Sequence record: NC_054922.1
Length of the DNA: 64,000 nt
Direction: 5' to 3' (one strand)
Source: Escherichia phage vB_EcoM_KAW1E185
The notes beneath the pieces are model-generated. The model ran no database searches, had not been told where the DNA came from, and saw nothing but the letters and a program-made list of their open reading frames with translations. The translations under genes and the position numbers were made by a program. This document shows, in pieces, positions 50,184-50,415 of this stretch. Position 1 is the stretch's first letter; every line of letters starts with the position of its first letter.

Positions 50184-50213
50184 ATTATATACCATCCGAA
50201 TCTTAAAGTAAAC
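50184..50213 (-). promoter_or_regulatory. T4-type early promoter for rnh
   Basis: Minus strand GTTTAC, 16-nt spacer, TATATAAT. Confidence 0.55.
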
Positions 50214-50238
50214 AAGTATAAATACTTATTATTGAAAA

Positions 50239-50360
50239 TTTTTTTTTTTTTTTTTTTTTTTTTTTTTTTTTTTTTTTTTTTTTTTTTTTTTTTTCAAGCA
50301 GAAGACGGCATACGAGATCGATCGGTGTCTCGTGGGCTCGGAGATGTGTATAAGAGACAG
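50239..50360. other. sequencing-library artifact: 56-nt poly-T plus Illumina P7/Nextera i7 adapter and mosaic end
   Basis: T56, then CAAGCAGAAGACGGCATACGAGAT, 8-nt index CGATCGGT, GTCTCGTGGGCTCGG, AGATGTGTATAAGAGACAG. Confidence 0.95.
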
Positions 50361-50415
50361 ATTATATACCATCCGAATCTTAAAGTAAACAAGTATAAAT
50401 ACTTATTATTGAAAA
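50361..50415. repeat. exact 55-bp direct duplicate of 50184-50238 flanking the adapter (assembly join artifact)
   Basis: attatataccatccgaatcttaaagtaaacaagtataaatacttattattgaaaa occurs identically on both sides of the adapter. Confidence 0.9.
50394..50401 (+). promoter_or_regulatory. late promoter TATAAATA for gene 34 (second copy at 50217-50224 within the duplicated block)
   Basis: Exact TATAAATA about 35 nt upstream of gene 34 ATG. Confidence 0.55.

Follow-up and report, generated by a model that had tools for sequence, protein, structure and literature searches.

The record of Escherichia phage vB_EcoM_KAW1E185 (NC_054922.1) carries, between rnh and gene 34, 177 nt that are almost certainly an artefact of de Bruijn-graph assembly and not phage DNA, buried in the middle of the record when the contig was rotated. 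The surplus can be written as positions 50239-50415 or, equivalently, as 50184-50360 of the window, by which we mean the whole 64-kb (64,000-nt) stretch that was analysed. The true sequence is one with a single copy of a 55-mer, which we call X55, and an intergenic region of 104 nt. The class of artefact is already understood, adapter read-through combined with the untrimmed overlap of a circular contig, and its history in this case is fully reconstructed.

The junction between rnh and gene 34

Using an exact string test, we found that 50184-50238 and 50361-50415 form a 55-bp direct repeat with not one further matching base beyond either end, and a repeat search independently recovered the 55-nt pair with a spacing of 177. 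Between the two copies there is a run of 56 T (50239-50294, plus strand), which is the sole homopolymer of at least 12 nt in the 64-kb window, followed by a 66-nt string on the same strand that joins P7, index, Nextera read-2 and mosaic-end sequences. It consists of the P7 flow-cell sequence CAAGCAGAAGACGGCATACGAGAT (exact, 50295-50318), the 8-nt index CGATCGGT (50319-50326), the Nextera read-2 tail GTCTCGTGGGCTCGG (exact, 50327-50341) and the Tn5 mosaic end AGATGTGTATAAGAGACAG (exact, 50342-50360). The left copy of X55 is genuine phage sequence, and from 50361 phage sequence resumes with the right copy and runs on into gene 34. We calculate that a given 66-mer would occur about 1.3e5/4^66 = ~2e-35 times on both strands of 64 kb, so chance can be excluded. 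The mosaic end occurs once in the whole window, with both strands searched. A reading made from the letters alone (hereafter the sequence-only reading) had described this same arrangement of repeat, T run and adapter string, and we located each of these elements where it had placed them; the screen for adapter strings that it proposed, which we ran on both strands of the 64-kb window, returned no P5, P7, Nextera or TruSeq 12-mer outside the insert.

The genes on either side are real and unaffected. Upstream is rnh (RNase H / flap endonuclease, 305 aa; 49237..50154, minus strand, with its ATG at 50154), whose exact protein is common to KAW1E185 and other Tequatrovirus phages. Downstream is gene 34 (long tail fibre proximal subunit, 1289 aa; 50436..54305, plus strand); the gp34 encoded in the window is identical to QBQ78530.1 / YP_010071449.1 of vB_EcoM_KAW1E185, its UniRef100 entry has a single member (n=1), and the exact sequence is recorded for this phage only. 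The region between the two genes measures 281 nt in the record and 104 nt once the 177 nt are removed. Promoters annotated in phage Lutter map inside the 55-mer, on the minus strand at 50184-50213 and on the plus strand at 50217-50224, and a motif search also points to an early-type promoter of rnh at the former position and to the late promoter of gene 34, TATAAATA, at the latter, both within the left copy of X55. In that search, GTTTAC...TATAAT (minus strand) and TATAAATA each had two occurrences in the window, one in each copy of the 55-mer. The insert also creates open reading frames. One of them, on the plus strand (50232..50423), would encode 63 aa of poly-Phe followed by translated adapter; it had been called spurious, and rightly, as it is composed almost wholly of poly-T, adapter and duplicate. 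Its exact protein is absent from a collection of 15 billion proteins. On the minus strand, the listing of reading frames contains a spurious 47-aa antisense ORF of translated adapter and then poly-Lys (50229..50372) and another antisense ORF at 50294-50503.

A megablast search with 49700-50900 matched 530 related T4-like records. In all of the best 30 of these 530 matches the record spans 1023-1024 bp against the 1201 bp of the query, that is, about 177 bp less, and the insert is covered by none of those 30. When the region was aligned with phages SholemSchwarzbard and Lutter, these showed a single 55-mer and a clean gap of 177 nt, with flanks identical at every base. The closest match in a phage collection is 99.5% identical across the local query, and 96-97% identical when 20 kb are compared. 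Among IMG/VR viral contigs, the exact 66-nt adapter with index CGATCGGT had no match. The sequence-only reading had predicted that the intergenic region is 177 bp shorter than recorded and that the early and late promoters are single-copy; the aligned relatives lack exactly 177 nt, and both promoters, lying within the 55-mer, are present in them once.

Origin in the library and in the assembly graph

KAW1E185 is one of the 50 phages described by Korf et al. (2019; PMC6563267). According to that work, the Illumina libraries were prepared with the Nextera kit following the protocol of Baym et al. and sequenced on MiSeq v3 (600 cycles), SPAdes (--careful, k=55) returned one contig per phage, and the circular contigs of T4-like phages were re-arranged to the gene order of published relatives. 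The paper names no platform per individual phage; for this record, Illumina/Nextera is implied by the adapter itself. Primer N715 is given in S1 Table of Baym et al. (2015; PMC4441430) as CAAGCAGAAGACGGCATACGAGAT CGATCGGT GTCTCGTGGGCTCGG, and the segment 50295-50341 (plus strand) is identical to it over all 47 nt. It is thus a complete synthetic i7 index PCR primer, a custom one from the very protocol that Korf et al. cite. The identity of the adapter as first read from the sequence stands, and the i7 index in it can be refined to the custom N715 of Baym et al. 2015, no standard Illumina i7. We had also considered the index CGATCGGT to be non-standard or noisy, an idea that was dropped after its match in the Baym primer table.

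The 47 nt of N715 followed by the 19-nt mosaic end are what a finished library molecule of this protocol contains, with no difference in sequence; only their location inside a deposited genome is odd. The mosaic end marks the tagmentation site, and the library insert starts at 50361. Furthermore, a read 1 that passes through a short insert gives, once reverse-complemented, the order poly-T, P7, index, Nextera read-2 tail (N2), mosaic end (ME) and insert. On four-channel Illumina instruments, a read that runs off its template yields poly-A. Such runs can be observed at the contig termini of other deposited records, with A after P5' and T before P7. The 56 T correspond to the reverse complement of such read-1 poly-A past the end of the P7 adapter.

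These features fit a chain of events. The library was made by Nextera tagmentation and PCR with the custom primer N715 of Baym et al., as the primer sequence in the insert shows. From standard Illumina chemistry we infer that the 300-nt reads were longer than some of the fragments; read 1 would then cross the insert into ME', N2', index' and P7' and go off the template, with poly-A calls probably coming from the flow-cell T-linker and the absent template. Reverse-complemented, such read-through reads would consist of poly-T, P7, index, N2, ME and insert, and they presumably entered assembly with no adapter trimming. In SPAdes at K=55, the circularly permuted genome would form a cycle, as the simulation described below shows and as fits the published method. 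In the same simulation the adapter path behaves as a tip, joining the cycle at the 55-mer whose first base is the tagmentation site, and the poly-T is reduced to a T55 node that loops onto itself through a T56 edge. The contig that is written out would be loop, tip and cycle, that is, T56, the 66-nt adapter, X55, the genome and again X55, the tip having been retained by SPAdes presumably through high adapter k-mer coverage. Cutting this contig and re-joining it to the gene order of published relatives, a step stated in PMC6563267, would leave both the K overlap and the tip untrimmed, and would place X55 followed by T56, adapter and X55 in mid-record, between rnh and gene 34. In terms of the graph, the left X55 (50184..50238) is the terminal K-mer of the cycle edge and the 3' end of the circular contig, and the right X55 (50361..50415) opens the library insert, of which it makes up the first 55 nt, and serves as the K-mer node at which adapter tip and genome cycle meet.

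The input to a toy de Bruijn graph with K=55 was a 19.8-kb circle of cleaned window sequence together with five read-through reads. Only two nodes of this graph were special, namely T55 and the tagmentation-site 55-mer, and its edges were exactly three: the T56 self-loop, a 176-nt tip (T55 + 66-nt adapter + X55) and the cycle X55..X55. A walk over loop, tip and cycle with K overlap gave a contig that exceeds the genome by 177 nt. When this simulated contig was cut elsewhere and its halves swapped, the resulting 632-nt junction, including 200-nt flanks, matched the window base for base. The length of the duplicate, 55, is the K stated in PMC6563267, and the T run of 56 is K+1; as the toy graph, walked and rotated, reproduces the junction, we take the two lengths to be K and K+1 of the assembler. 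The internal position of the junction is in turn accounted for by the re-arrangement stated in PMC6563267, with no trimming. The simulation, together with the published k=55 and the re-arrangement of circular contigs, supports the proposal of the sequence-only reading that this is a library-adapter chimera at a contig-end join. The terminal K overlap of SPAdes circular contigs is the same kind of exact direct repeat of length K (55). That overlap is usually found at the ends of a record, whereas here it is internal, the contig having been rotated, and its two copies are separated by the adapter tip and do not stand in simple tandem.

Sister genomes and rival explanations

A search with 50285-50375 showed that 41 phage records contain this adapter combined with other indices, and in many of these it sits at the termini. 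Three T4-like sisters from PMC6563267 share the whole structure at different loci: 55 bp are exactly duplicated, 56 nt are rich in T and 66 nt are adapter, with 177 nt in all. In phage G10400 (MK327937.1, 109608-110493; index CTAGTACG), its neighbours are the gene of an intron endonuclease and a hypothetical gene. In phage G4500 (MK327945.1, 123557-124437; index GGCCGTGG, which is Baym N722), it lies inside a 2226-nt CDS annotated as 'hypothetical protein', and the ORF stays open across the insert because 177 is a multiple of 3. In vB_EcoM_G4507 (MK327946.1, 76284-77161, also RefSeq NC_054919.1; index CAGCCTCG), it lies inside gene 5 and splits gp5 ('baseplate hub subunit and tail lysozyme') into two CDSs, an error that has been propagated to RefSeq. 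A biological element would not swap its index between genomes while its lengths match an assembler parameter. The 56-nt stretch of the three sister records is T-rich with substitutions, and its length is still 56. A pure T56 loop in every case, which we had entertained, therefore had to be given up for the sisters in favour of an extra step, probably the mismatch corrector of --careful or noisy tails.

Adapter contamination is a familiar problem of public assemblies (the class addressed by VecScreen and FCS-adaptor; cf. the ONT adapter survey PMC13182109), and the records discussed here have the embedded synthetic oligonucleotide and the untrimmed reads in common with it. In many contaminated records the adapter is found at contig termini, whereas in KAW1E185 and its three sisters it is internal and bears the K / K+1 fingerprint. 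Two genomes described as 'complete', LR597643.1 and MH538296.1, have poly-T and P7/Nextera sequence at the start and reverse-complemented P5 and poly-A at the end; they are linear assemblies, and a K overlap was looked for at both termini and found at neither. Their termini support the view that adapter tails assemble as contig-end tips. Phage records that are unrelated carry P7/Nextera adapters internally as well. In Bacillus phage Tomato (MT584805.1, 107110-107985), N-rich sequence follows the adapter, which breaks the DNA polymerase up into two CDSs. In Pseudomonas phage SaPL (MH973725.1, 6231-7112), a CDS contains a 259-bp duplicate, a partial ME', T23 and adapter, and in Paenibacillus phage Pd_22F (MZ092003.1, 27596-28465) a long poly-C precedes the adapter, which is suggestive of a two-channel poly-G tail.

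Another technical route to the KAW1E185 junction can be imagined. A chimeric library molecule could have been built into the interior of the assembly, or two separate contigs could have been joined by hand or by a scaffolder, with a 55-bp overlap left over. Adapters do sit at the termini of many deposited contigs, and the end-to-end join of any overlapping contigs could leave a duplicate. Nevertheless, neither version predicts that the duplicate equals K (55) and the T run K+1 (56), both of which the graph simulation reproduces; the 55/56/66 lengths recur at unrelated loci in three sister genomes, and a single contig per phage was reported (PMC6563267). We consider such a route very unlikely.

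It is far less probable again that the block with the rnh early and gene 34 late promoters is a genuine tandem duplication and that only the poly-T and adapter are artefactual. The promoter motifs are intact in both copies and short direct repeats of early-promoter sequence exist elsewhere in the window, but the aligned relatives have one copy, and each of the best 30 of the 530 matches is about 177 bp shorter than the query. Moreover, the repeat starts at the base right after the mosaic end, where tagmentation took place, its length is exactly K with zero extension, and the same structure is present at non-promoter sites in the sister genomes, for example inside gp5. The Tn5 mosaic end could be taken as a sign that the insert is physically part of the phage genome, acquired by Tn5-type transposition or by recombination in which library DNA or an engineered cassette took part. 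However, the single mosaic end has no inverted partner on either strand, and the duplication is of 55 bp, with no 9-bp target duplication. The adjoining sequence is a full synthetic primer from a published table, next to a poly-T that comes from base calling, and there is no plausible path by which a PCR library molecule could have reached a phage stock that was sequenced afterwards. Of the explanations weighed here, we give this one the smallest chance, a practically negligible one, and the same holds for the presence of the 177 nt within packaged phage DNA, which nothing supports.

Consequences for databases and other features of the window

Read as an assembly artefact, the insert has no biological significance; its value is for curation, and modest. 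The KAW1E185 record should lose 177 nt, which would also remove the second copy of the early and late promoters and two or three phantom ORFs. The sister records (MK327937, MK327945 and MK327946/NC_054919) also need correction, and there the damage is greater. As 177 is a multiple of 3, such an insert may stay in frame and escape notice. The mining of phage databases for intergenic regions, promoters, small ORFs or 'novel insertions' would return false positives from such records. The combination of K, K+1 and adapter (55+56+66=177) is a searchable signature of untrimmed, rotated 'tip + cycle' contigs from SPAdes, and could flag more corrupted circular genomes in GenBank and RefSeq.

ARAGORN found no tRNA genes in the 64-kb window (1-64000), which places the T4 tRNA cluster outside this segment. 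Finally, the window contains other direct repeats of 50-54 nt, 76-96% identical and intergenic. One pair is located at 46871-46971 and 63455-63552, near gene 32/frd.3, and a second at 23451-23504 and 37168-37221, near motA. Both show a minus-strand GTTTAC ... TATAAT-like spacing and resemble the extended T4 early-promoter consensus, and since they are conserved in hundreds of relatives, we regard them as genuine. In one of the repeats (D4), the hairpin that follows differs between the copies, with its pairing preserved.
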